The notes below the pieces were generated by a model. It searched no databases and was not told the DNA's origin. It saw nothing but the letters and a program-made list of their open reading frames with translations. From NCBI RefSeq assembly GCF_055900595.2, contig NZ_CM148325.1: DNA of 64,000 nt; one strand, 5' to 3'. Position numbers and translations under genes: made by a program. Shown here one piece after another: positions 4,508-19,974 of the stretch (position 1 is the first letter of the stretch; every line of letters begins with the position of its first letter).

Positions 4508-7500
4508 ATGGGTAAAGGCAGCAGTAAGGGGCATACTCCGCGCGAAGCGAAGGACAACCTGAAGTCCACGCAGTTGCTGAGTGTGATCGATGCCATCAGC
4601 GAAGGGCCGGTTGAAGGTCCGGTAGATGGATTAAAAAGCGTGCTGCTGAACAGTACGCCAGTGCTGGACATTGAGGGGAATACCAACATCTCCGGCGTCA
4701 CGGTGGTGTTCCGGGCCGGTGAGCAGGAGCAAACACCGCCGGAGGGATTTGAATCCTCCGGCTCCGAGACGGTGCTGGGTACGGAAGTGAAATACGACAC
4801 GCCGATCACCCGGACCATCACGTCGGCAAACATTGACCGACTGCGTTTTACCTTCGGCGTGCAGGCACTGGTGGAAACCACCTCAAAGGGGGACAGGAAT
4901 CCGTCGGAAGTCCGCCTGCTGGTTCAGATACAACGTAACGGTGGCTGGGTGACGGAAAAAGACATCACCATTAAAGGCAAAACCACCTCACAGTATCTGG
5001 CCTCGGTGGTGGTGGGTAACCTGCCGCCGCGCCCGTTCAATATCCGGATGCGCAGGATGACGCCGGACAGCACCACAGACCAACTGCAGAACAAAACGCT
5101 CTGGTCGTCATACACCGAAATCATCGATGTGAAACAGTGCTACCCGAACACGGCACTGGTTGGCGTGCAGGTGGACTCGGAGCAGTTCGGCAGCCAGCAG
5201 GTGAGCCGTAATTATCATCTTCGCGGGCGCATTCTGCAGGTGCCGTCGAACTATAACCCGCAGACGCGGCAATACAGCGGTATCTGGGACGGAACGTTAA
5301 AACCGGCATACAGCAACAACATGGCCTGGTGTCTGTGGGATATGCTGACCCACCCGCGCTACGGCATGGGGAAACGTCTTGGTGCGGCAGATGTGGATAA
5401 ATGGGCGCTGTATGTCATCGGCCAGAATTGCGACCAGTCGGTGCCGGACGGCTTTGGCGGTACGGAGCCGCGCATCACCTGTAACGCTTACCTGACCACA
5501 CAACGTAAGGCGTGGGATGTGCTCAGTGATTTCTGCTCGGCGATGCGCTGTATGCCGGTATGGAGCGGGCAGACGCTGACGTTCGTGCAGGACCGACCGT
5601 CGGATAAGGTGTGGACCTATAACCGCAGTAATGTGGTGATGCCGGATGATGGCGCGCCGTTCCGCTACAGCTTCAGCGCCCTGAAAGACCGCCATAATGC
5701 CGTTGAGGTGAACTGGATTGACCCGGATAACGGCTGGGAGACGGCAACAGAGCTTGTGGAGGACTCGCAGGCCATTGCCCGTTACGGTCGTAACGTCACG
5801 AAGATGGATGCCTTTGGCTGTACCAGCCGGGGGCAGGCACACCGCGCCGGGCTGTGGCTGATTAAAACGGAGCTGCTGGAAACGCAGACGGTGGACTTCA
5901 GCGTGGGTGCCGAAGGGCTTCGCCATGTGCCGGGCGATGTTATTGAAATCTGCGATGATGACTATGCCGGTATCAGCATCGGTGGTCGCGTGCTGGCGGT
6001 GAACAGCCAGACCCGGACGCTGACGCTCGACCGTGAAATCACGCTGCCATCCTCCGGCACCACGCTGATAAGCCTGGTTGACGGTGAGGGTAATCCGGTC
6101 AGCGTGGAGGTCCAGTCCGTCACCGACGGCGTGAAGGTGAAAGTGAGCCGTGTTCCTGACGGCGTTGCTGAATACAGCGTGTGGGGGCTGAAGTTGCCGA
6201 CGTTGCGCCAGCGCCTGTTCCGCTGCGTGAGTATCCGTGAGAACGACGACGGCACGTATGCCATCACTGCCGTGCAGCATGTACCGGAGAAAGAGGCCAT
6301 CGTGGATAACGGGGCGCACTTTGACGGTGACCAGAGCGGCACGGTGAATGGTGTCACGCCGCCAGCAGTGCAGCACCTGACCGCAGAAGTCACTGCAGAC
6401 AGCGGGGAATATCAGGTGCTGGCGCGATGGGACACACCGAAGGTGGTGAAGGGCGTGAGCTTCCTGCTTCGCCTGACCGTGGCAGCGGATGACGGCAGTG
6501 AGCGGCTGGTCAGCACGGCCCGGACGACGGAAACCACTTACCGCTTCACACAACTGGCTCTGGGGAACTACAGGCTGACAGTCCGGGCAGTAAATGCGTG
6601 GGGGCAGCAGGGCGATCCGGCGTCGGTATCGTTCCGGATTGCCGCACCGGCAGCGCCGTCGCGGATTGAGCTGACGCCGGGCTATTTTCAGATAACCGCC
6701 ACGCCGCATCTTGCGGTTTATGATCCGACGGTACAGTTTGAGGTCTGGTTCTCGGAAAAACGGATTGCTGATATCAGGCAGGTTGAAACCAGCGCGCGTT
6801 ATCTTGGTACGGCGCTGTACTGGATAGCCGCCAGTATCAATATCAAACCGGGTCGTGATTATTACTTTTATATCCGCAGTGTGAACACCGTCGGCAAATC
6901 GGCATTCGTGGAGGCTGTTGGTCGGGCGAGCGATGATGCGGAAGGTTACCTGGATTTTTTCAAAGGCCAGATAACCGAATCCCATCTCGGCAAGGAGCTG
7001 CTGGAAAAAGTCGAGCTGACGGAGGATAACGCCAGCAGACTGGAGGAGTTTTCGAAAGAGTGGAAGGACGCCAGTGATAAGTGGAATGCCATGTGGGGCG
7101 TCAAAATTGAGCAGACCAAAGACGGCAAACATTATGTCGCGGGTATTGGCCTCAGTATGGAGGATACAGAGGAAGGCAAACTGAGTCAGTTTCTGGTTGC
7201 CGCCAATCGTATCGCGTTTATTGACCCGGCAAACGGGAATGAAACGCCGATGTTTGTGGCGCAGGGCAACCAGATATTCATGAACGACGTGTTCCTGAAA
7301 CGCCTGACGGCCCCCACCATTACCAGCGGCGGTAATCCTCCGGCATTTTCCCTGACACCGGATGGGCGGCTGACGGCGAAAAATGCCGATATCAGCGGTA
7401 ACGTGAATGCGAACTCCGGGACGCTCAACAACGTCACGATTAACGAGAACTGTCGGGTTCTGGGAAAACTGTCCGCGAACCAGATTGAAGGCGATCTCGT

Positions 7501-7903
7501 TAAAACAGTGGGCAAAGCTTTCCCCCGGGACTCCCGTGCACCGGAGCGGTGGCCATCAGGGACCATTACCGTCAGGGTTTATGACGATCAGCCGTTTGAC
7601 CGGCAGATTGTTATTCCGGCGGTGGCATTCAGCGGCGCTAAACATGAGAGAGAGCATACTGATATTTACTCCTCATGCCGTCTGATAGTGCGGAAAAACG
7701 GTGCTGAAATTTATAACCGTACCGCGCTGGATAATACGCTGATTTACAGTGGCGTTATTGATATGCCTGCCGGTCACGGTCACATGACGCTGGAGTTTTC
7801 GGTGTCAGCATGGCTGGTAAATGACTGGTATCCCACAGCAAGTATCAGCGATTTGCTGGTTGTGGTGATGAAGAAAGCCACCGCAGGCATCAGTATCAGC
7901 TGA
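4508..7903 (+). CDS. J: phage tail tip host-specificity protein J
   Basis: 1131 aa starting [24 protein letters not shown], collinear with lambda gpJ throughout; the ORF track start at 4463 is an upstream extension. Confidence 0.95.
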
Positions 7904-7921
7904 ATTTTATAACCCATATAC

Positions 7922-7946
7922 GGGCGCCAGAAATGGCGCCTTTTTT
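7922..7946 (+). terminator. rho-independent terminator after J
   Basis: GGCGCC-agaaat-GGCGCC stem followed by TTTTTT. Confidence 0.7.
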
Positions 7947-7970
7947 ATTGCAGAAAAGCGAGAGGTAATT

Positions 7971-8570
7971 ATGCGTAAAGTTTGTGCAGCCATTTTGTCC
8001 GCAGCCATCTGTCTGTCCGTATCCGGTGCGCCTGCATGGGCATCTGAACATCAGTCCACGCTGAGCGCGGGGTATCTTCATGCCTCGACGAACGTTCCCG
8101 GCAGCGATGATCTTAACGGGATTAACATGAAATACCGTTATGAGTTTACGGACACACTGGGGCTGGTGACGTCATTCAGCTATGCAGGAGACAAGAATCG
8201 CCAGCTTACCCGTTACAGCAATACCCGCTGGCATGAAGATTCCGTGCGTAACCGCTGGTTCAGCGTGATGGTGGGGCCGTCTGTGCGCGTGAATGAATGG
8301 TTCAGCGCGTATGCGATGGCGGGTATGGCTTACAGCCGTGTGTCGACTTTTTCCGGGGATTATCTCCGCGTAACTGACAATAAGGGGAAAACGCACGATG
8401 TGCTGACCGGAAGTGATGACGGTCGCCACAGCAACACGTCTCTGGCGTGGGGAGCTGGCGTGCAGTTTAACCCGACCGAATCCGTGGCCATTGATATTGC
8501 TTATGAAGGCTCCGGCAGTGGTGACTGGCGCACTGACGGTTTCATCGTGGGTGTCGGTTATAAATTCTGA
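7971..8570 (+). CDS. lom: outer membrane protein Lom (Ail/Lom family, prophage-encoded)
   Basis: 199 aa with signal peptide [24 protein letters not shown] and beta-barrel pattern ending ...GVGYKF, as in lambda Lom. Confidence 0.9.
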
Positions 8571-8597
8571 TTAGCCAGGTAACACAGTGTTATGACA

Positions 8598-8622
8598 GCC
8601 CGCCGGTTCAGGCGGGCTTTTT
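8598..8622 (+). terminator. rho-independent terminator after lom
   Basis: GCCCGCC-ggttca-GGCGGGC stem followed by TTTTT. Confidence 0.75.
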
Positions 8623-9330
8623 GTGCACAGAAAACCCCCAGCTAGGCTGGGGGTTCCGGAAAGCTTTCAGCTTTGAGCCAGTTATTAAAACCCCTTTTGA
8701 TTTGTTAAAACACCTTGCGGTCTGGCAACTGCAAGTGTCAAACAAGAAATCAAAAGGGGGTCCCAATGGGGGACGAAAAGAGCTTAGCGCACACCCGCTG
8801 GAACTGTAAATATCACATAGTTTTTGCGCCGAAATACCGAAGACTGGCGTTTTACGGAGAGAAGCGTAGGGCGATAGGCAGTATTTTGAGAAAGCTGTGT
8901 GAGTGGAAAAGCGTACGGATTCTGGAAGCAGAGTGCTGCGCAGATCATATCCATATGCTTGTGGAAATCCCACCCAAAATGAGCGTATCCGGCTTTATGG
9001 GATATCTGAAAGGGAAAAGCAGTCTGATGCTTTACGAGCAGTTTGGGGATTTGAAATTCAAATACAGAAACAGGGAGTTCTGGTGCCGAGGGTACTATGT
9101 CGATACGGTGGGTAAGAACACGGCGAAGATACAGGACTACATAAAGCACCAGCTTGAAGAGGATAAAATGGGGGAGCAGTTATCGATTCCATATCCGGGC
9201 AGCCCGTTTACGGGCCGTAAGTAACGAAGTTGAATGCAAATGTCAGATCGTATGCGCCTGTTAGGGCGCGGCTGGTAACAGAGCCTTACAGGCGCATTTG
9301 AAAAACCTCCGGCTATGCCGGAGGATATTT
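8623..9330 (+). mobile_element. IS200 insertion sequence (IS200/IS605 family); ends approximate
   Basis: Contains a tnpA matching IS200 Y1 transposase; left-end hairpin CCCCCAGC-tagg-CTGGGGG upstream of tnpA; ~0.7 kb, the expected IS200 size. Confidence 0.8.
8766..9224 (+). CDS. tnpA: IS200 transposase TnpA (HUH/Y1)
   Basis: 152 aa MGDEKSLAHTRWNCKYHIVFAPKYRR...HIHMLVEIPPK, the HUH motif and IS200 TnpA signature. Confidence 0.95.
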   Translation: MGDEKSLAHTRWNCKYHIVFAPKYRRLAFYGEKRRAIGSILRKLCEWKSVRILEAECCADHIHMLVEIPPKMSVSGFMGYLKGKSSLMLYEQFGDLKFKYRNREFWCRGYYVDTVGKNTAKIQDYIKHQLEEDKMGEQLSIPYPGSPFTGRK

Positions 9331-9345
9331 ATTTGTGGAGTGGAT

Positions 9346-11751
9346 ATGGCAGCAGTAAAAATCTCAGGTGTGCTGAAAGATGGTGCGGGAAAACCAATAC
9401 AGAACTGCACTATTCAACTGAAGGCAAAGCGTAACAGCACCACGGTACTGGTGAACACGGTGGCTTCTGAAAATCCGGATGAAGCCGGACGTTACAGCAT
9501 GGATGTTGAGTATGGCCAGTACAGCGTCACCCTGCTGGTTGAAGGTTTTCCGCCTTCACATGCCGGGACCATTACCGTCTATGAAGGCTCCAGACCAGGT
9601 ACGCTGAATGATTTTCTCGGTGCCATGACGGAAGATGATGTCATGCCGGAGGCATTGCGTCGTTTTGAGGCAATGGTGGAAGAAGTGGCACGCAACGCCG
9701 AAGCCGCCTCTCAGAGCGCAGCGGCGGCAAAGAAATCCGAAACTGCAGCGGCATCATCAAAGAACGCGGCGAAAACCTCAGAAACGAATGCAGCTAATAG
9801 TGCACAGGCGGCAGCGACCTCAAAGACTGCATCGGCAAACTCCGCGACAGCAGCCAAAAAATCAGAAACCAACGCGAAAAATAGCGAGACAGCCGCAAAG
9901 ACGAGCGAAACCAACGCAAAGTCCAGCCAGACGGCAGCGAAAACCAGCGAAACGAATGCCAAAGCCAGTGAAACTGCGGCAAAAAACAGCCAGGTTGCAG
10001 CAGCCCAAAGCGAGAGCGCGGCAGCCGGTTCTGCGACTTCAGCAGCTGGATCAGCAACTGCTGCGGCTAACAGCCAGAAAGCTGCGAAGACGAGTGAAAC
10101 TAACGCAAAGTCCAGCCAGACGGCAGCGAAGACCAGCGAAACGAATGCCAAAACCAGCGAAACTGCGGCGAAAAACAGTCAGGATGCAGCAGCCCAAAGC
10201 GAGAGTGCTGCAGCTGGTTCTGCAAGCGCGGCGGCTGCTTCTGCCACTGCATCAGCTAACAGTCAAAAAGCAGCAAAAACCAGTGAAACCAACGCAAAGG
10301 CGAGCGAGACTGCGGCGGCGAACTCGGCGCAAGCATCGGCAGCAAGCCAGACAGCAGCTAAAGCAAGTGAAGACGCAGCCAGAGAGTATGCAAGCCAGGC
10401 AGCGGAGCCGTATAAACAAGTTTTGCAGCCGTTGCCCGATGTGTGGATACCGTTTAATGATTCACTGGATATGATTACGGGCTTTTCGCCATCATATAAA
10501 AAAATTGTTATTGGCGACGATGAAATAACAATGCCTGGCGACAAGATTGTAAAGTTTAAACGCGCATCGAAAGCAACTTACATTAATAAATCTGGTGTGC
10601 TGACAGAGGCTGCCATTGACGAGCCACGATTTGAACGTGATGGCCTGCTTATTGAGGGGCAAAGAACTAACCTGCTAATCAATTCAACAAATCCGACTAA
10701 ATGGAACAAGTCGTCAAATATGATCTTAAGTGCATCAGGTGTAGATGATTTCGGATTCCAGTACGCAAAATTTACATTAAAACCAGAAATGGTAGGGCAA
10801 ATTTCAGCGATTAACATAGTAACCGTTTCCGGCAGTAAAGGTTTTGATGTAACAGGCGGAGAAAAGTATGTAACCATATCATGCAGGGTGCAAAGTGGCA
10901 CTCCAAATTTAAGATGCCGATTACGATTTGAAAACTATGATGGTTCTACCTACACATTCTTAGGTGACGCTTACTTAAATACGACAGATTTATCTATTGA
11001 TAAGACGGGTGGTGCCGCTAATCGCATTACTGCAAGGGCTGTTAAAGATGAAGCAAGCAAATGGATCTTTTTTGAGGCGACAATTAAGGCACTTGATACA
11101 GAAAATATGATAGGTGGAATGGTTCAGTATGCCCCGGCAAAAGGAGTGGGCACTGGCGCGGATGATTATATTTATATTGCGACCCCTCAAGTTGAAGGTG
11201 GGGCGTGCGCTTCATCGTTTATTATAACAGGCGCATCCCCTGTAACACGCGCCAGCGATATTGTGACGGTCCCCATTTCTCTAAATTGGTGCAATCCCGC
11301 TATTAGTTCATTAGCAGAAGTTAATACCAATTGGGATGAATCGCCAAACAAAGAAGGTAGCGCACGTATTCTTAATATTTCCACTACGGGAGATACAACT
11401 GAAATTGCAGATGAAAGTTATATGTATTTGGGGTATACATCTTTGGGAGCACGCGCAATCATTACAAATGGTAAAGGCACTAAAATAGAATATAAAAGCG
11501 TTATAGAACGACCAGAGAGAAAAAGCATTATCGGCTTTAGATTCACAGAAAGTCGAGAATTGTGTGTTGTGGTTAACGGTAATATTGGTGCTAAGGTAGT
11601 TTCTCCTTATAAAAAACACAAATATACAGGAGGCTTCATTAATATTGGTGGTCAATCATCATCCGGCAACCGTCACCTATTTGGACACGTTCGAAATCTG
11701 CGTATTTGGCACAAGGCATTGACTGATGCTCAGATGGGGGAGTCAATCTAA
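9346..11751 (+). CDS. stf: side tail fiber protein (lambda Stf-like N-terminus, Ala/Ser/Thr-rich repeat shaft, divergent AT-rich C-terminal domain)
   Basis: N-terminus MAAVKISGVLKDGAGKPIQNCTIQLKA... matches lambda Stf; shaft has repeated KTSETNAK units; C-terminus ends GHVRNLRIWHKALTDAQM, resembling a LamG/concanavalin-like fold. Confidence 0.85.
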   Translation: MAAVKISGVLKDGAGKPIQNCTIQLKAKRNSTTVLVNTVASENPDEAGRYSMDVEYGQYSVTLLVEGFPPSHAGTITVYEGSRPGTLNDFLGAMTEDDVMPEALRRFEAMVEEVARNAEAASQSAAAAKKSETAAASSKNAAKTSETNAANSAQAAATSKTASANSATAAKKSETNAKNSETAAKTSETNAKSSQTAAKTSETNAKASETAAKNSQVAAAQSESAAAGSATSAAGSATAAANSQKAAKTSETNAKSSQTAAKTSETNAKTSETAAKNSQDAAAQSESAAAGSASAAAASATASANSQKAAKTSETNAKASETAAANSAQASAASQTAAKASEDAAREYASQAAEPYKQVLQPLPDVWIPFNDSLDMITGFSPSYKKIVIGDDEITMPGDKIVKFKRASKATYINKSGVLTEAAIDEPRFERDGLLIEGQRTNLLINSTNPTKWNKSSNMILSASGVDDFGFQYAKFTLKPEMVGQISAINIVTVSGSKGFDVTGGEKYVTISCRVQSGTPNLRCRLRFENYDGSTYTFLGDAYLNTTDLSIDKTGGAANRITARAVKDEASKWIFFEATIKALDTENMIGGMVQYAPAKGVGTGADDYIYIATPQVEGGACASSFIITGASPVTRASDIVTVPISLNWCNPAISSLAEVNTNWDESPNKEGSARILNISTTGDTTEIADESYMYLGYTSLGARAIITNGKGTKIEYKSVIERPERKSIIGFRFTESRELCVVVNGNIGAKVVSPYKKHKYTGGFINIGGQSSSGNRHLFGHVRNLRIWHKALTDAQMGESI
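9860..10330 (+). repeat. tandem imperfect coding repeats (~186-bp units) in the tail fiber shaft
   Basis: Protein repeats SQKAAKTSETNAKSSQTAAKTSETNAK(A/T)SETAAKNSQ...AAAQSESAAAGSA occur at least twice, nearly identical. Confidence 0.7.
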
Positions 11752-12032
11752 TGAAAGATTTAACACTCAAATTTGCCGACAGGGCCGACTTTTCGGCTTT
11801 TATGGGAAGTATTGGCTATTATAATGACGAGTCGATGCAGGATGATATTCTGATTGATGTGATAGGTAACGTGTACAAAGAAACCGGAGAGCTGACTGAA
11901 GATGGCGAACCGGTATGTGTTAAGGAAGATGGATATTTTGTAAACGTGCGCATCATTAAGGATACGCAAATATCGTCATTATTCGATGAATACGCGGTTG
12001 CTGTTGAGCATCAACTTCGTGGCTGGATGTGA
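11751..12032 (+). CDS. hypothetical protein (93 aa) immediately downstream of tail fiber; possible fiber assembly/accessory protein
   Basis: ATG overlaps the stf stop (TAATG); acidic 93-aa product; same low-GC block as the fiber C-terminus. Confidence 0.5.
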   Translation: MKDLTLKFADRADFSAFMGSIGYYNDESMQDDILIDVIGNVYKETGELTEDGEPVCVKEDGYFVNVRIIKDTQISSLFDEYAVAVEHQLRGWM

Positions 12033-12041
12033 GGTAGAGAA

Positions 12042-12746
12042 ATGGCTACATCAACAGTAATTCCGGGAGACATCACCACGCTGAAGGGAGATGTTAGTAA
12101 AGCAAAGGAAGATATTTCCTCTATTAACGGAAAAGTATCAACGCTTCAGACTGATATGGCCAGTGCAAAGCAGGATATCAGCACCAGATACACAAAAACT
12201 GAAGTTGATAATAAGCTGAAAAACAAAGTGGAAGTGAACGATCTGGAAAGTGGTCGTTATGGCGGAGATTTTTACCCGCTGACTGGCCGTGAAGCGTTTT
12301 ATTTATGGGGATTGGGCACAACTACAGCGGCGGCAAATCTTTATCTTAATCCTGACCCTGCAATTTCGTCTGTGCTGCGGTCAACATCGTCTATCCGCTA
12401 TAAACATTCAGTAGAGACGATAGATTCAGAGCACGCCGATCTCATTTTCAGGATGCGCCCTGTGTGGTACAGGTCGCAATGCGAAAATGACAGGCGTGAC
12501 TGGGGATTCTATGGATTGATTGCCGAGGAAGTTGGAGAAATTGCCCCTCAGTTTGTTCACTGGCGACCAGCCAACGAAGATGATGCACCGGAAACCATTT
12601 CCAGCAATGGCCTTGTTGCCGAAGGTGTAATGTACGAACGTCTGGTTGTTCCACTGATTCACCATATCCAGAAGCTGACTGAAAGAGTTGATGAACTTGA
12701 GTCAGAATTAAAGTTGTTATCCGTTTCCCGAAGCGATATCGGATAA
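12042..12746 (+). CDS. coiled-coil protein with C-terminal intramolecular-chaperone (peptidase S74-like) domain; tail-fiber-related
   Basis: N-terminal heptad-like coiled coil; C-terminal SSIRYKHSVETID...LIFRMRPVWYR...GFYGLIAEEV resembles the self-cleaving chaperone domain of endosialidase-type fibers. Confidence 0.6.
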   Translation: MATSTVIPGDITTLKGDVSKAKEDISSINGKVSTLQTDMASAKQDISTRYTKTEVDNKLKNKVEVNDLESGRYGGDFYPLTGREAFYLWGLGTTTAAANLYLNPDPAISSVLRSTSSIRYKHSVETIDSEHADLIFRMRPVWYRSQCENDRRDWGFYGLIAEEVGEIAPQFVHWRPANEDDAPETISSNGLVAEGVMYERLVVPLIHHIQKLTERVDELESELKLLSVSRSDIG

Positions 12747-12756
12747 AGGAGGCGTA

Positions 12757-13050
12757 ATGGATATAACACCTTTCCTTCATGCACTTTGTGCTGTGGCTGC
12801 GCAGGTACTGGTTGGTCTTTTTACCGGAAACTGGGCTTACGGGGCGATAGCTGGTTGTACGTTCTTCATTGCGCGTGAACATACCCAGGCAGAATATCGC
12901 TGGATTGAAATGTTCGGGCATGGCAAGCGTATGAATATGCCGTGGTGGGGCGGTTTTGATCCGCGTGCGTGGGATGTGGCAAGCCTGATGGATTTTGCTG
13001 TGCCGGTGGTGGCGTGTCTGCTGGTCTGGCTGTTGGTTAATCGTGGGTGA
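12757..13050 (+). CDS. small membrane protein (97 aa, two predicted TM segments), function unknown
   Basis: Hydrophobic N- and C-terminal segments; RBS AAGGAGG upstream; tightly packed after the preceding ORF. Confidence 0.5.
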   Translation: MDITPFLHALCAVAAQVLVGLFTGNWAYGAIAGCTFFIAREHTQAEYRWIEMFGHGKRMNMPWWGGFDPRAWDVASLMDFAVPVVACLLVWLLVNRG

Positions 13051-13060
13051 AAAAAGGTGA

Positions 13061-13180
13061 GCTGTATATGCAACGGAGGAAGAAACCTCGTTGCGGGAAG
13101 CCTTGAAGAAGTATCGGGTGTTGCTGAACCGTGTTGATACGTCAACTGCACAGGATATTGAATGGCCAGCACTGCCGTAG
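13061..13180 (+). pseudogene. tfa: tail fiber assembly protein (Tfa) 3' remnant
   Basis: Translates to [36 protein letters not shown], the conserved Tfa C-terminus (as in K-12 TfaQ/TfaR), with no upstream coding part. Confidence 0.75.
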
Positions 13181-13277
13181 GGTAAAACATATAAATTCTA
13201 TAATTAGATGTATCTTTCCATTTACGGCAAGGAAGGGGGCTTGGAAGACGTAAGGCATCTCACACCGAGATTATTTT

Positions 13278-13868
13278 TTATATGTCAGGTGTCTGAAGTT
13301 TTGCTTTGGCTCTTAAAATGGTTTGCCGCGAGGTTTTGAATTCCCGGGCAATGGCACTTATACTTACACCTGACTTAATCCGTTCGAATACCACCTGTTT
13401 CTGTTCTTCATTTAACACAGGTGGTCGACCAAAACGTTTCCCTGCGCCCCGGGCTCTTACTATCCCGGAATGAGTGCGTTCAAGTAAAAGGTCTCGTTCA
13501 AATTCAGCGACTGCTGAAATTACTTGCATCATCATTTTTCCTGTTGGACTGGTCAGGTCAATGCCCCCCAATGCTAAGCAATGCACTCTGATACCTGTTT
13601 CGGTCAGTTGTTCCACTGTTTTCCTGATATCCATTGCATTACAACCAAGGCGATCCAGTTTTGTCACAATCAATTGATCACCACATTTCAGGCGAGCAAG
13701 CAACCGGTTAAAACCAGGACGCTCACTGGTTGCTGCTGAGCCGCTAATGTGTTCTTCGATTATTTGCTGAGGTTTGATTTTAAAACCTGCACTTTCGATT
13801 TCCCGGCGTTGATTTTCGGTGGTCTGATCCAGCGTTGATATCCGACAGTAAGCAAAAATTCGAGACAT
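13278..13868 (-). CDS. pin: serine recombinase / DNA invertase (PinQ/PinR-like)
   Basis: 196 aa [29 protein letters not shown]... resolvase/invertase fold with catalytic Ser and C-terminal HTH; position next to tfa and ydfK matches K-12 pinQ. Confidence 0.9.
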
Positions 13869-14184
13869 AGTGAGACTCTATACGAAATTGGTGTTCATAT
13901 CATAATGCATCTCAGAAAATAATTTTGATTATTTTTGTGCATGTTTGTATGTACACGTTCGAAAATAAACGAATGCGTATGCAACCCCGTAATTTTGGTG
14001 AGACCCAAAATCGATTTTGTGAAAAATGGCTTTAACTCGGTTTGTTTTTCGAGTTCCGGGCGGACTCAAGGAAGAAGAATAGTGTTGCGTGTTATTTTAA
14101 CCAGATTTCAAGTTGTTTGGTCGTGGAAAAGTGGAGCAAAATGTTGTTAAAGTGGAAAAATGATAAAAAAGTAAGTTTATTATA

Positions 14185-14418
14185 TTACATTTTACCATTT
14201 AAATTTTGGTTGTCTTTAAGAACTGATATCGCTGTTTGTAATAATTCTTTGTTATCCAGCCATGATTTTTTCTTTATGTTTCCTTCAATGTAATCAAGCA
14301 ATGTTCTGGTATTGATAGGTCTTCCCTGTTTTGCTACTTCCACTACAGCATCCCCTAGGATAATTCTGACTTCAGGAAGCTGCGCAGGGAACCACTTTAG
14401 GGTGTCTTTTGATTTCAT
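14185..14418 (-). CDS. ydfK: YdfK/YnaE family prophage protein (cold-shock-induced, DUF1737-like)
   Basis: MKSKDTLKWFPAQLPEVRIILGDAVVEVAKQGRPINTRTLLDYIEGNIKKKSWLDNKELL... matches K-12 YdfK; RBS AAGGA upstream of this start, so the longer ORF-track start at 14451 is rejected. Confidence 0.8.
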   Translation of the reverse strand: MKSKDTLKWFPAQLPEVRIILGDAVVEVAKQGRPINTRTLLDYIEGNIKKKSWLDNKELLQTAISVLKDNQNLNGKM

Positions 14419-15203
14419 GAATATATTCCTTAAAATATTATTGATTTTCATTGCGATATTGTATGTCTGATTCAGGATATGTTGACTTATACATCGGTTT
14501 TGTCTGGGTTATTGGATATGCCAATCCCTAATTTTATTAGAGCATGACTAAAAATGCTGAATATGATAAGGAGCGAAGTGATTATCAGTATGCTGTTCAT
14601 ATAGCCTCGAATTATTAATGTGTTATATATGATATAGTTGACAATTTTTATCCTGGGTGTTCTTAAAGTTCGTAGATAAACATTGTCGTTTCAGGTATAC
14701 AGGAATGCTAACAGATGGCGGCAAAAATCAGGCGGTTTATGGCGCAAGCTGAAGTGGCAACTGCAAACTATCTTATGCAGAGACTCTACACGGATTGGGT
14801 TTAAAAGTATACATAGATAACAGTTTTTATCTGAAGAAGAAAAATATCAAGGTGATATAGCCTATATGCCTTTGATGCGGAGGAATGAATGTGATGGGAG
14901 TGATGTATCTGAATAGTTGAAAAACCGCAGACACGCCTTATGCAAGAACGTGCTGCGGTTGGCTGGTAAATTTTTCGATAGTGCGAGTATTGAATGATTT
15001 CCAGCCGTTATTGATTTTACGCGTAACTCCATGAAAAAACTACTTATCTGTTGAGGAGTTTTTTTGGGGCATATATGGGACAGAAATAGGCCCCAGATAG
15101 ACACTGAGATCGAACTTAGGATGCTTTTTAAAAAATGCAACTATCTGAAAAAACCTAGAAAACGCCAAGGAAACCACAGGATGGGAAAAAACACCTGTGA
15201 ATC

Positions 15204-16487
15204 ATGGATTTCCAGTTATATTCGCTCGGCGCAGCGTTAGTGTTTCATGAAATATTTTTTCCTGAATCATCAACGGCAATGGCGTTAATTCTGGCAATGG
15301 GAACCTACGGTGCAGGTTATGTGGCGCGTATTGTCGGAGCATTTATTTTCGGCAAAATGGGCGACAGAATCGGGCGTAAAAAAGTGCTCTTTATTACCAT
15401 CACTATGATGGGGATCTGTACCACCTTAATTGGTGTGCTGCCGACCTATGCACAAATTGGTGTGTTTGCGCCAATTTTGCTGGTGACGCTGCGTATTATT
15501 CAGGGGCTGGGGGCAGGCGCGGAAATTTCCGGTGCCGGTACGATGCTGGCGGAATATGCGCCAAAAGGTAAGCGCGGAATTATCTCCTCATTTGTTGCTA
15601 TGGGGACTAACTGCGGAACCTTGAGCGCAACGGCAATCTGGGCCTTTATGTTCTTCATTCTCAGTAAAGAGGAACTGTTGGCGTGGGGATGGCGTATACC
15701 GTTCCTGGCGAGCGTTGTCGTGATGGTCTTTGCTATCTGGTTGCGTATGAATCTGAAAGAAAGCCCGGTCTTTGAGAAGGTTAACGACAGCAACCAACCG
15801 ACAGCAAAACCTGCACCTGCTGGTAGCATGTTCCAGAGCAAATCCTTCTGGCTGGCAACAGGGCTGCGTTTTGGTCAGGCTGGTAACTCAGGTTTAATTC
15901 AGACTTTCCTTGCAGGCTATTTAGTGCAGACGTTATTGTTTAACAAAGCAATTCCAACAGATGCATTGATGATCAGTTCGATTCTCGGCTTTATGACCAT
16001 TCCGTTCCTTGGTTGGTTATCCGATAAAATTGGTCGCCGGATCCCGTATATTATTATGAATACCTCTGCGATTGTGCTGGCGTGGCCAATGCTTTCTATC
16101 ATCGTAGATAAAAGCTATGCCCCGAGCACCATTATGGTTGCACTGATTGTGATTCATAACTGTGCGGTGCTGGGATTATTTGCTCTGGAAAACATTACCA
16201 TGGCAGAAATGTTCGGCTGTAAAAACCGCTTTACCCGGATGGCCATTTCTAAAGAAATTGGTGGTCTTATCGCTTCCGGTTTTGGTCCTATCCTGGCGGG
16301 TATTTTCTGCACCATGACGGAATCCTGGTATCCGATCGCCATTATGATCATGGCATATTCAGTGATTGGTTTAATCTCTGCGCTGAAAATGCCAGAAGTG
16401 AAAGACCGTGATTTAAGTGCACTGGAAGATGCCGCGGAAGATCAACCGCGTGTTGTAACAGCTGCGCAACCTTCAAGAAGTCTGTAA
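15204..16487 (+). CDS. ydfJ: MFS metabolite:H+ symporter YdfJ, N-terminally truncated at the prophage junction
   Basis: 427-aa ORF matching K-12 YdfJ (MDFQLYSLGAALVFHEIFF...); begins within TM2 of an MHS-family transporter, so the 5' part is missing. Confidence 0.85.
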   Translation: MDFQLYSLGAALVFHEIFFPESSTAMALILAMGTYGAGYVARIVGAFIFGKMGDRIGRKKVLFITITMMGICTTLIGVLPTYAQIGVFAPILLVTLRIIQGLGAGAEISGAGTMLAEYAPKGKRGIISSFVAMGTNCGTLSATAIWAFMFFILSKEELLAWGWRIPFLASVVVMVFAIWLRMNLKESPVFEKVNDSNQPTAKPAPAGSMFQSKSFWLATGLRFGQAGNSGLIQTFLAGYLVQTLLFNKAIPTDALMISSILGFMTIPFLGWLSDKIGRRIPYIIMNTSAIVLAWPMLSIIVDKSYAPSTIMVALIVIHNCAVLGLFALENITMAEMFGCKNRFTRMAISKEIGGLIASGFGPILAGIFCTMTESWYPIAIMIMAYSVIGLISALKMPEVKDRDLSALEDAAEDQPRVVTAAQPSRSL

Positions 16488-16494
16488 ATCCTCC

Positions 16495-16526
16495 ATCCCT
16501 TCTCTTACCGGAGAGGGGATTTTTTA
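16495..16526 (+). terminator. rho-independent terminator after ydfJ
   Basis: ATCCCTTCTC-ttaccg-GAGAGGGGAT stem followed by TTTTT. Confidence 0.6.
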
Positions 16527-16576
16527 TTCATATAACAAAACATGCAGCTTGCCATATTTAAATTTAAGGAATTGTT

Positions 16577-18037
16577 ATGGGAAATAATTTGTTATCAGCA
16601 AAAGCGACGCTCCCTGTTTATGATCGTAATAACCTGGCCCCAAGAATTGTTCATTTAGGCTTTGGTGCATTTCACCGTGCGCATCAGGGCGTGTATGCCG
16701 ATATTCTTGCTACGGAACATTTCAGTGACTGGGGATATTATGAGGTCAATTTAATCGGCGGCGAACAGCAAATTGCCGATTTACAACAGCAAGATAATCT
16801 TTATACCGTTGCGGAAATGTCGGCCGATGCGTGGACGGCTCGCGTCGTTGGCGTCGTTAAAAAAGCCTTGCACATACAAATAGATGGCTTAGAAACCGTG
16901 CTGGCTGCGATGTGTGAACCGCAAATCGCGATTGTCTCTCTGACAATCACCGAAAAAGGGTATTTCCACTCTCCGGCGACCGGACAGTTAATGCTCGATC
17001 ACCCGATGGTCGTTGCCGACGTGCAAAATCCCCACCAGCCGAAAACTGCAACAGGGGTGATTGTTGAGGCGCTGGCTCGCCGTAAAGCGGCAGGACTTCC
17101 CGCATTTACCGTCATGTCATGTGACAACATGCCAGAAAACGGTCATGTTATGCGTGACGTTGTCACTTCCTACGCGCAAGCTGTTGATGTAAAACTGGCA
17201 CAATGGATCGAAGAAAACGTGACTTTCCCATCAACAATGGTGGACCGTATTGTGCCCGCAGTGACGGAGGATACGCTGGCGAAAATCGAACAACTTACCG
17301 GTGTGCGCGATCCTGCTGGCGTTGCCTGTGAACCTTTCCGCCAGTGGGTAATAGAAGATAACTTTGTTGCCGGACGTCCGGAATGGGAAAAAGCGGGAGC
17401 CGAACTGGTTAGTGATGTGCTGCCTTATGAAGAGATGAAGTTGCGCATGCTCAACGGCAGTCATTCATTCCTGGCGTATCTGGGGTATCTTGCCGGATAT
17501 CAGCACATTAATGACTGCATGGAAGATGAACATTATCATCATGCAGCGTATGCCTTGATGTTGCAGGAACAAGCGCCCACGCTGAAAGTGCAGGGCGTTG
17601 ATTTGCAAGATTACGCTAACCGATTAATTGAACGCTATAGCAACCCGGCGCTACGTCATCGAACCTGGCAGATTGCGATGGATGGCAGCCAGAAATTGCC
17701 ACAGCGGATGTTGGATTCTGTTCGCTGGCATCTGGCGCATGACAGCAAGTTCGATCTGCTGGCGCTGGGCGTCGCGGGTTGGATGCGTTATGTCGGTGGT
17801 GTTGATGAACAGGGAAATCAGATAGAAATCAGTGACCCACTGTTACCTGTTATTCAGAAGGCAGTACAAAGTAGTGCTGAAGGGAAAGCGCGCGTCCAGT
17901 CATTGCTGGCGATTAAGGCGATCTTTGGTGATGATTTACCGGGCAATAGCTTGTTTACTGCAAAAGTGACGGAAGCGTACTTGTCTTTATTAGCGCATGG
18001 CGCAAAAGCGACCGTGGCGAAATATTCCGTGAAGTAA
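16577..18037 (+). CDS. ydfI: mannitol dehydrogenase family oxidoreductase YdfI
   Basis: 486 aa; N-terminal [10 protein letters not shown] Rossmann motif of the mannitol dehydrogenase family; K-12 synteny. Confidence 0.9.
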
Positions 18038-18044
18038 AAAAAGC

Positions 18045-18065
18045 AATGCCGCCATCGGCGGCATT
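18045..18065 (-). terminator. stem-loop terminator downstream of ydfZ (between convergent ydfI and ydfZ)
   Basis: AATGCCGCC-atc-GGCGGCATT perfect hairpin flanked by an A-run on plus, i.e. a U-run on the minus transcript. Confidence 0.6.
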
Positions 18066-18072
18066 CACACGC

Positions 18073-18276
18073 TTAGTTCATGCCGAGACGAATCAGGTCC
18101 AGAGGTGCCAGTTTCTCTTCACAACCTTCAACAACTACGGTTTTTCCGCGGCGGATTTGCTCAGCGGTCAGACCTTCAGTATCAATCGACAGGATCTTGC
18201 CAGTGTGACCGGTGCCGCTAACCATAACACGGCTGCCAGTGGTGATTGCGTTACGGTTACGATCGTAGGTCGTCAT
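18073..18276 (-). CDS. ydfZ: selenium-binding protein YdfZ
   Basis: 67 aa [67 protein letters not shown], identical in pattern to K-12 YdfZ. Confidence 0.9.
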
Positions 18277-18452
18277 AGGTGTTTTCTCCTTTCTGATTTA
18301 CAGTCGAAGCCCACGTAACGGGCGCAATATAAATACTCCTGTCGAGTGAAATATTTTTTGTTTTTGATCAAGCTCACATCTTTTTTGATGCATGCATGAG
18401 CCATATGACGGAGGGAAAAACTCTCACCCCGGATGGGATGAGAGGAAATGAA

Positions 18453-19139
18453 TTACTCTTCGCTAAACCAGTCGCTGTTTTCCTGGCGGATCTGGCGCAC
18501 GGATTCGCTGATTTCCTGCAAATGTTGCGTCATTGCACGTTCTACCGCATCGCCATCACGTTTTTGCAGGGCAGAGAAAATATCAAGATGCTGGCGTAAC
18601 AGCATTTCTGGTGGAGAAACGTGGTCGAAACTCATATAGCGCACGCGATCAACGGTCGCTTTCAGGTTCTCAATGGTATCCCACGCCAGTTGACAGTCGG
18701 CAATCTGCGTCAGGAGTTGATGGAAGTTGTCATCAAGTTCAAAAAAATCATCCAGTTGCTTGCGCTCAATGGCAATGCGTTGCTGGTGAAGATTTTGTTC
18801 CAGTTGGTAGCACTGGCTTTCGGTAATCATGCTCGCCGCCCGACGCGCCACCGCGCACTCAATGGCCTGACGGATAAAACTGCAGTTGCGCACCTGGGCC
18901 ATGGAAATTTTGTTGACGTAGCTGCCACGCTGCGGACGAATTTGAATCAGGCCGTTTTCCGCCAGTTTAATAAAGGCTTCACGAACCGGCTGGCGTGACA
19001 CATTGAAACGAACAGAAACTTCTTTTTCCGACAACGGTGTGCCTGGTGCAATCAGGCAATGGACAATGTCGCGGCGAAGAATACGATAAATCTGCTGATT
19101 GACAGGCTGTGTGGGATTAAGTTGCGTTTCGACGGTCAT
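18453..19139 (-). CDS. ydfH: GntR/FadR-family transcriptional regulator YdfH
   Basis: 228 aa with N-terminal winged-HTH (GntR) and FCD domain; K-12 synteny. Confidence 0.9.
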
Positions 19140-19227
19140 TCGTTCTTGCTTGTGAGTGAGTTAACTGCATGAGTCTACCACTTTTTTGTGACAAGCAATA
19201 ACCCGGCAGTTACGCCGGGTATAAAAA

Positions 19228-19974
19228 TTACTGACGGTGGACATTCAGTCCGGCATAGCTTTGGGTAACCGGCATCATTTCCAGGGTATTGATATTGACG
19301 TGAGCAGGCAGCGTTGACACCCACCAGACGGCTTCGCTGACATCTTCTGGCGTCAATGCAACTGTGTTTTGATAGGTTTTTTCCGCTTTACCGTCATCAC
19401 CTTTAAAGCGGACATTGGAAAACTCGGTGCCACCCACCAGTCCCGGTTCGATGTCTGTGACACGTACTGCCGTACCGTGCAGATCTGTGCGTAGATTAAG
19501 GCTGAACTGACGAACAAACGCTTTCGTCGCACCATAAACGTTACCACCAGCATACGGCCAGCTGCCTGCCGTGGAGCCAATGTTAATGATATGACCATGA
19601 TTACGTTCAACCATACCCGGTAAGACGGCCCGCGTCATATATACCAGGCCTTTGTTGTTGGTATCAATCATCGTTTCCCAGTCTTCAACGCTGGCTTTAT
19701 GCGCAGGCTCCATGCCCAGCGCCAGACCGGCATTGTTTACCAGGATATCAATATTGCACCACTCGGCAGGAAGCGATGCCAGCATCTCTTCAATAGCGGC
19801 GCGATTACGAACGTCCAGTTGGGCGATATACAGATTATCACCCAGTTCGTCTTTTAACTCCTGCAACCGCTCCTGGCGACGGCCAGTGGCGATAACTTTA
19901 TGCCCTTGTTGAATAAAACGACGAGTAATGCATTCACCAAAACCTGCCGTTGCTCCAGTTACTAAAACGATCAT
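19228..19974 (-). CDS. ydfG: NADP-dependent 3-hydroxy acid dehydrogenase YdfG (SDR family)
   Basis: Starts MIVLVTGATAGFG (SDR glycine motif); 248 aa; the ORF-track start at 19989 is an extension. Confidence 0.9.
   Translation of the reverse strand: MIVLVTGATAGFGECITRRFIQQGHKVIATGRRQERLQELKDELGDNLYIAQLDVRNRAAIEEMLASLPAEWCNIDILVNNAGLALGMEPAHKASVEDWETMIDTNNKGLVYMTRAVLPGMVERNHGHIINIGSTAGSWPYAGGNVYGATKAFVRQFSLNLRTDLHGTAVRVTDIEPGLVGGTEFSNVRFKGDDGKAEKTYQNTVALTPEDVSEAVWWVSTLPAHVNINTLEMMPVTQSYAGLNVHRQ

Follow-up and report, generated by a model that had tools for sequence, protein, structure and literature searches.

A lambdoid prophage carries, between the last gene of a tail-fibre cassette and the DNA invertase gene pinQ, a short stretch resembling the end of a tail fibre assembly (tfa) gene, which raises the question of what this stretch is and how it came to lie there. 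The DNA analysed comprised 64,000 nucleotides of contig NZ_CM148325.1 (assembly GCF_055900595.2), hereafter called the window, which takes in the right end of a lambdoid prophage of the Qin type, integrated in ydfJ. Its genes follow each other in the order gpJ, lom, an IS200-type element, stf, three genes for proteins of 93, 234 and 97 amino acids, the tfa relic, pinQ, ydfK, ynfT, ydfJ and ydfI (Table 1). Identity to the RefSeq strain CFSAN061763 is 100% over positions 12700–13900 and 99.1% over 9328–19902.

Table 1. Features of the tail-fibre region and its surroundings, in window coordinates.
Feature	Position	Strand	Description
lom	7971–8570		
IS200-type element	8623–9328		Y1 transposase ORF ends 9224
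stf	9343 (ATG)–11751	+	
stf, 5' part	9343–9741	+	conserved; Pfam phage_tail_N, stf residues 4–133
stf, distal part	9742–11751	+	replaced; KTSETNAK-type repeats, tip with GTA_spike_fiber-type domain
93-aa gene	11751–12032	+	PHROG 1361
234-aa short fibre gene	12042–12746	+	Peptidase_S74 intramolecular-chaperone domain, residues 116–172
97-aa gene	12757–13050	+	membrane protein with two TM segments; PHROG 1443; directly upstream of the junction in all loci seen
Junction filler	13038–13055	+	end of the 97-aa gene with its last 4 codons altered (..VNRG, stop), then AAAAAG
Degraded, frameshifted tfa residue	13056–13069	+	equivalent to about codons 151–155, from alignment to intact tfaQ and longer relics
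tfa 3' relic	13070–13180	+	last 36 codons and TAG of a TfaQ/lambda-type tail fibre assembly gene; pseudogene
Probable crossover interval, present prophage	13109–13140	+	invariant stretch coding for 10 residues
pinQ	13278–13868	-	serine DNA invertase, convergent with the relic; intact, 196 aa
ydfJ	15204–16487		5'-truncated

The initial annotation, made from the sequence alone, held that only the last ~36 codons of a Tfa-type gene are left at this place, after an accessory cassette and before pin. Translation of positions 13061–13180 on the plus strand gives 39 residues, of which residues 4–39 are the Tfa-homologous part. This part proved significantly similar to Tfa proteins in BLASTP alignments, with 34 identities over 36 residues to TfaQ (residues 156–191 of 191; 94%, E 9e-22) and 31 over 36 to lambda Tfa (residues 156–191 of 194; 86%, E 1e-19). 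The Pfam model Caudo_TAP (PF02413) was covered only at positions 95–130 of 131 (i-E 1.4e-13), and PHROG tail-fibre-assembly families matched with their C-terminal ends (E ~1e-12). Searching the whole 64-kb window by tblastn with full-length TfaQ and lambda Tfa returned residues 156–191 and nothing of residues 1–155. Moreover, in the RefSeq record NZ_CP042899, which is 100% identical, PGAP labels the same 111 bp 'tail fiber assembly protein; incomplete; missing N-terminus'. The claim was right on both counts, as to the remaining codons and as to their position between the 97-aa gene and pinQ.

The architecture of Tfa proteins is modular: the N-terminal domain, which binds the fibre, is variable, and the helical C-terminal domain is conserved (PMC9608196). 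In lambda, Tfa is a functional chaperone with its full length of 194 aa, whereas the relic corresponds to residues 156–191 of it and lacks the fibre-binding domain. A complete tfa ORF of ~190 codons, with a start and the N-terminal domain, is not present, the relic frame being closed upstream by an in-frame TGA at 13058–13060 and having no ATG or GTG start. A functional tfa, furthermore, adjoins its fibre gene, and here the relic is separated from stf by three unrelated genes (93, 234 and 97 aa). Positions 13070–13180 are confirmed as a dead, non-functional 3' fragment of a lambda-type tfa and no chance match. The fragment agrees with the definition of the tfaX type, that is, a tfa 3' end that has lost its 5' part and borders on unrelated DNA within the tail-fibre region of a lambdoid prophage, and it belongs to a common kind of relic that is already annotated as a tfa pseudogene.

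The textbook-strain counterpart, tfaX (b0563) in the DLP12 prophage of K-12, is likewise a decayed C-terminal Tfa fragment downstream of other tail-fibre-region genes. It adjoins appY and ends ..SLLEA through a Trp-to-stop change. Unlike the relic, tfaX has its 5' breakpoint ~95 nt upstream of the conserved core (~40 nt here) and no 97-aa gene before it.

A longer ORF in another frame, which the initial annotation had named as an observation that would speak against a tfa remnant, does formally exist, as a minus-strand ORF of 117 aa at 12837–13190, but it was judged to be a shadow ORF of the 97-aa gene and the tfa reading stood. This ORF has no PHROG match, carries no annotation in the RefSeq record of identical sequence, begins within Qin-specific DNA and varies in boundaries and length between contexts; it shares third codon positions with the 97-aa gene, and a substitution-pattern test cannot separate the two.

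To what extent the resident tail-fibre module has been lost can be read from prophages in which stf and tfa are intact. Against 39 such loci (the stf–tfaQ locus of the NCTC10444 Qin prophage and 38 IMG/VR loci), homology to the window stops at 9698–9737, inside stf, and resumes at 13069/70, supporting the proposal of the initial annotation that a distal stf/tfa module was replaced. On the left, the limit falls at the end of the Pfam domain phage_tail_N ('Prophage tail fibre N-terminal'). The tfaQ–pinQ (Qin) and tfaR–pinR (Rac) loci of E. coli K-12 and its relatives are 98–99% identical to window positions 13070–14200, through the spacer, pin and ydfK, and have the same convergent arrangement. 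These loci keep a full 191-codon tfa directly after stf, whereas in the window codons 1–155 and the distal part of stf have given way to a cassette of ~3.3 kb, made up of a new stf shaft and tip, the 93-aa gene, the 234-aa S74 fibre gene and the gene of the 97-aa membrane protein.

The start of the 93-aa gene overlaps the stop codon of stf (ATGA), so this gene takes the position normally held by tfa. The gene is 87–100% conserved across cassettes that differ in stf tip and second fibre, and its product is a candidate for a dedicated chaperone or adaptor of this type of Stf fibre. Neither the relic nor the small cassette proteins had a match in NCBIfam. As a whole, the new fibre module is apparently independent of Tfa; the better argument for this comes from the S74 domain, and another from the prophage Tritos, whose whole genome contains only Tfa residues 156–191 by tblastn. 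Because side fibres are dispensable on K-12, which lacks O-antigen, plaques on this host do not prove that side fibres assemble free of Tfa. This holds for Tritos, which makes plaques on K-12 (PMC9928086).

Two parts of the cassette have relatives in other kinds of phage. At the DNA level, part of the stf tip (10423–11267) is 85–88% identical to lateral tail fibre genes of T1-like (tuinn, swan01) and T5-like (VSe12, BUCT632) phages, and judging by this sequence identity it would be a receptor-binding domain common to temperate lambdoid and virulent phages. The 97-aa gene lies directly 3' of receptor-binding protein genes in lambdoid siphoviruses including phage 21 (locus L165, 4001–4294), after the tailspike gene in the P22-like podovirus Gally (L166, 3501–3788), and after an S74 fibre gene in a dusA-integrated prophage (L054, 4002–4289). 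This moron-like position suggests the 97-aa gene as a candidate for a role in lysogenic conversion or exclusion. In the dusA-integrated prophage (E. coli 07B21CPO001; L054, 4397–6296), the 97-aa homologue has an internal stop and is followed by reverse transcriptase and SLATT-domain genes, a probable anti-phage defence pair, beside the integrase at dusA.

At the upstream junction, tfa homology extends in decayed form for ~14 nt beyond the relic, to about position 13056 (GGTGAGCTGTATAT- in the window versus GTAGATCTGGAAATC), and a 1-bp deletion at 13069/70 throws positions 13056–13069 out of frame. The order of elements is the stop of the 97-aa gene, AAAAAAG, GTGAGCTGTATAT, the 1-bp deletion and GCAACGG. 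Copies of the 97-aa gene that are not followed by a relic (IdasGreatGrand, L054) part from the window at 13038–13055 and end ..LIR before the stop and a hairpin, and the position of the original breakpoint is uncertain by ~15–20 nt (13038–13056). A search for the state before truncation, in which the 97-aa gene would be followed by an intact tfa, found none; in the relic-free copies of IdasGreatGrand, L054 and Gally the gene is followed by a hairpin and unrelated DNA. Frameshifting or readthrough from the 97-aa ORF into the relic at A AAA AAG was considered and rejected, as the heptamer lies 3' of the stop and the two frames are unconnected.

This junction is widespread. With positions 12990–13115 as megablast query and hits counted at coverage of at least 80%, it was found in 1,728 of 5,426 complete E. 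coli genomes (32%), with a median of 2 and a maximum of 5 copies per genome and ~3,270 copies in all; among them are Nissle 1917, APEC O1 and an E. coli B derivative. The exact junction 27-mer also occurs in 43 IMG/VR contigs, and the same junction is found in phage 21, in the LF82 prophage Tritos and in PhiR49_1. Phage 21 is a classical lambdoid phage isolated in the 1950s. Even the 1-bp deletion is identical in DLP12 prophages, in the appY and ybcY contexts, and in sit-linked prophages. The 97-aa gene stands before the junction in all 47 loci sampled, with an identity of at least 95%. Further upstream the loci vary, with the 234-aa fibre, a 346-aa fibre or no second fibre, and with several stf tips.

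The two characterised phages illustrate this. Phage 21 (OL657228) and Tritos (OV696610) have the same organisation of stf, 93-aa gene and 97-aa gene and the identical junction. In Tritos, pin follows as well, and identity to the window is 99.3% over 12756–14200, but the second fibre is the 346-aa protein, not that of 234 aa, and the stf tip differs. Phage 21 is without the S74 fibre of 234 aa, and the sitABCD operon truncates its relic once more, at about position 13126.

What follows the junction is pin, appY (DLP12), ybcY (DLP12), sitD or other DNA, and with this context the relic differs at its distal end. At least eight distal end types were distinguished, each tied to the downstream gene. 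The end ..QDIEWPALP, followed by a stop as are the others, goes with pin; ..VAPDIEWLIQP goes with appY and is exactly the distal end of K-12 tfaX; ..APDIEWPTNPVRE goes with ybcY and is the end of K-12 tfaD; the further ends, of at least five types, include ..PEEPDTM, ..PVIPEV and ..PSQP. Over the distal 43 nt, relics are 0.98–1.0 identical to the intact tfa of the same context, compared with 0.56–0.67 to those of other contexts. As the distal ends match the local context, a single truncation followed by many homologous crossovers within the ~110 bp is the history to which they point. In this respect the recombination within tfa that the initial annotation had postulated is borne out. Since one and the same junction is joined to at least eight distal tfa ends, which vary together with the gene downstream, the truncation would be old, of single origin, and would travel with the cassette.

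For the present prophage, the joint can be placed from the markers within the relic. Its proximal haplotype, G13090, G13095 and G13108, is common to cassette copies in ybcY contexts, and from G13141 on the sequence is of the Qin/pinQ type. Proximal ybcY-type markers combined with a distal Qin type place the joint between 13109 and 13140, an interval resting on six informative sites (three on either side), some of them polymorphic among cassette copies. A crossover within this interval, to judge from these sequence markers, probably put the cassette beside pinQ.

These results bear directly on the remaining claim of the initial annotation, namely that the truncation is the scar of a replacement in this prophage. 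According to that account, an illegitimate replacement or deletion within the present prophage lineage would have left its trace at 13056–13070, and the relic does lie precisely where the foreign cassette meets resident Qin DNA, the sequence from 13070 being 99% identical to tfaQ–pinQ. The claim is contradicted by the identical junction, 1-bp deletion included, in DLP12 and sit-linked prophages, in phage 21 and Tritos, and in about a third of complete E. coli genomes. An independent origin of the same breakpoint in all of these is implausible, and the differing distal ends argue against the idea that the other copies were recently passed on from a Qin prophage. That the scar arose in this lineage is therefore very unlikely, and a homology arm in repeated use is a more fitting description of the relic than a scar left by a single event.

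The best explanation, which we hold to be very probably correct, is that the relic is the dead end of a tfa gene, acquired in an old fusion, and that the cassette has since been moved by homologous crossovers at both arms. An old illegitimate event would have fused the end of a Tfa-independent fibre cassette, with the 97-aa gene last, to about codon 151 of a tfa, and the 1-bp deletion would have come after the fusion. Homologous recombination could then carry the ~3.3-kb cassette from prophage to prophage, taking place on the right between the ~110-bp patch and a resident tfa, and on the left between conserved stf 5' ends (phage_tail_N). The present cassette would have arrived in this way in a Qin-type prophage at ydfJ, with the right crossover in the interval given above. 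As the ~110 bp code for the conserved C-terminal helical domain, a near-identical patch lies at the right end of the tail-fibre region in almost every lambdoid prophage; and since the relic is the coding DNA of this conserved part, it is the one sequence that a Tfa-less cassette can share with resident tfa genes. A point against the explanation is that the left arm, the 5' part of stf, is only 80–89% identical to the intact-tfa loci sampled.

In the mosaic-boundary or 'linker' model, short conserved patches flank the modules of lambdoid phages, and homologous recombination takes place at these patches. The junction described here resembles that model in that a short boundary patch is reused for crossovers and the same cassette appears in different contexts. 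It differs in that the patch is neither an intergenic linker nor the end of a functional gene, being instead a dead gene fragment that rides with the cassette. In any case, the process is ordinary phage mosaicism, fits the known mosaic evolution of lambdoid tail-fibre regions and has its counterpart in tfaX. We found no paper on the present junction in the literature on tfaQ, pinQ and stfQ or on exchange of lambdoid side-fibre modules.

Three further readings give the segment a function, or derive it from one. In the first, the relic would be a mini-gene from which a peptide of ~29 aa, the oligomerisation helix of the Tfa C terminus, is translated from TTG 13088. A GGAGG at 13075–13079 precedes this in-frame TTG by eight nucleotides, and PHROGs 2341 and 3792 are families of short proteins made up of the relic region. 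The Shine-Dalgarno-like motif and the TTG are, nevertheless, the Thr-Glu-Glu-Glu and Leu codons of tfa itself, there is no ATG or GTG, and one relic copy has CTG in place of the TTG. Nor has the coding sequence been kept intact across copies, as purifying selection would have it: the conserved Trp is Leu in the window, Arg in two other relic copies and a stop in a further copy and in K-12 tfaX, and three relic copies contain frameshifts. From the missing start codon, the Trp changes and the frameshifts it follows that the relic is without a product, and a functional mini-gene is extremely improbable.

As little credence can be given to the second reading, in which the segment acts as a small RNA (Rfam IS009) or as a 3'-UTR or terminator element of the late operon. 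Positions 13048–13146 match IS009 (RF02111) with 63.7 bits (E 5e-13), which is below the gathering threshold of 117, and only the two ends of the model align. The model contains no base pairs, and in K-12 (locus L164) it matches at 4857–5055 and 5899–6102, on the coding sequence of tfaD and more weakly on tfaX. Since IS009 maps within tfaD, the match in the window mirrors tfa homology, and the family detects tfa 3' ends and provides no evidence of a small RNA. The folding z-score of the segment (-0.68) was no better than that of shuffled sequences, no terminator-like sites were detected in 12600–14300, and promoter-like matches were only weak.

The third reading, that the relic was left over from a tail-fibre segment inverted by Pin, as in the G segment of Mu, the C segment of P1 or the P segment of e14, is hardly to be believed either, notwithstanding an invertase gene, pinQ, only 98 bp downstream of the relic. 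AAACCNNGGTTT is the crossover core of Gin/Hin/Pin-type invertases. Inverted repeats of the crossover-site type were absent from 7000–15200, so that an adjacent invertase is present here and flanking inverted crossover sites are not, and no AAACCNNGGTTT-like core was seen near pin, although a diverged site could escape this consensus. There is, moreover, no opposed set of fibre tips or tfa, all fibre genes lying on the plus strand, and the same relic occurs without pin, beside appY, ybcY and sitD. With no recognisable crossover sites or invertible segment nearby, and facing the fibre genes in convergent orientation as its counterparts do in K-12 Qin and Rac, pinQ looks like an orphan invertase.

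Returning to the relic as a homology arm, its persistence could be purely neutral. A more tentative proposal, which we regard as rather unlikely, is that the relic is kept because the 97-aa gene together with the dead tfa end forms a universal right-hand adaptor for cassette portability. If true, the adaptor would explain why a third of E. coli genomes have the junction, often with several prophages of one cell carrying it, and why the ~110 bp have not eroded; selection would then act at the level of the cassette, on a fragment that has no product.

In genome annotations the segment should appear as a tfa pseudogene fragment, and not as a gene, a small RNA or a sign of an invertible segment. 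The locus adds a well-replicated example of the movement of a host-range cassette, in which the mobile unit is bounded by the first 400 bp of stf and the last 110 bp of tfa and the right-hand patch serves even with a dead tfa. This may be of use in predicting or engineering tail-fibre swaps between lambdoid phages, and leaves current understanding unchanged.

The IS200-type element sits right after the terminator hairpin of lom, 15 nt upstream of the stf start, and contains an Rfam STnc490 match (8633–8756, 146 bits). It is absent from the near-identical CFSAN061763 and from all related phages examined, and it may separate stf and the cassette from late transcription.

Truncation of tfa has happened repeatedly, with at least eight independent truncation classes among the sampled IMG/VR loci that have the conserved core, and with two or three relics stacked in some loci. 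Prophage contigs with two to three Tfa C-terminal relics in a row are L088 (298–3409), L117 (10–1379), L063 and L137. One such relic forms an in-frame fusion with the N-terminal ~75 residues of a serine recombinase of the Pin type, 44% identical to PinQ; the junction reads ..VVLVVEAWKKYRV.., and this suggests deletions between invertase and tfa genes of the same orientation.
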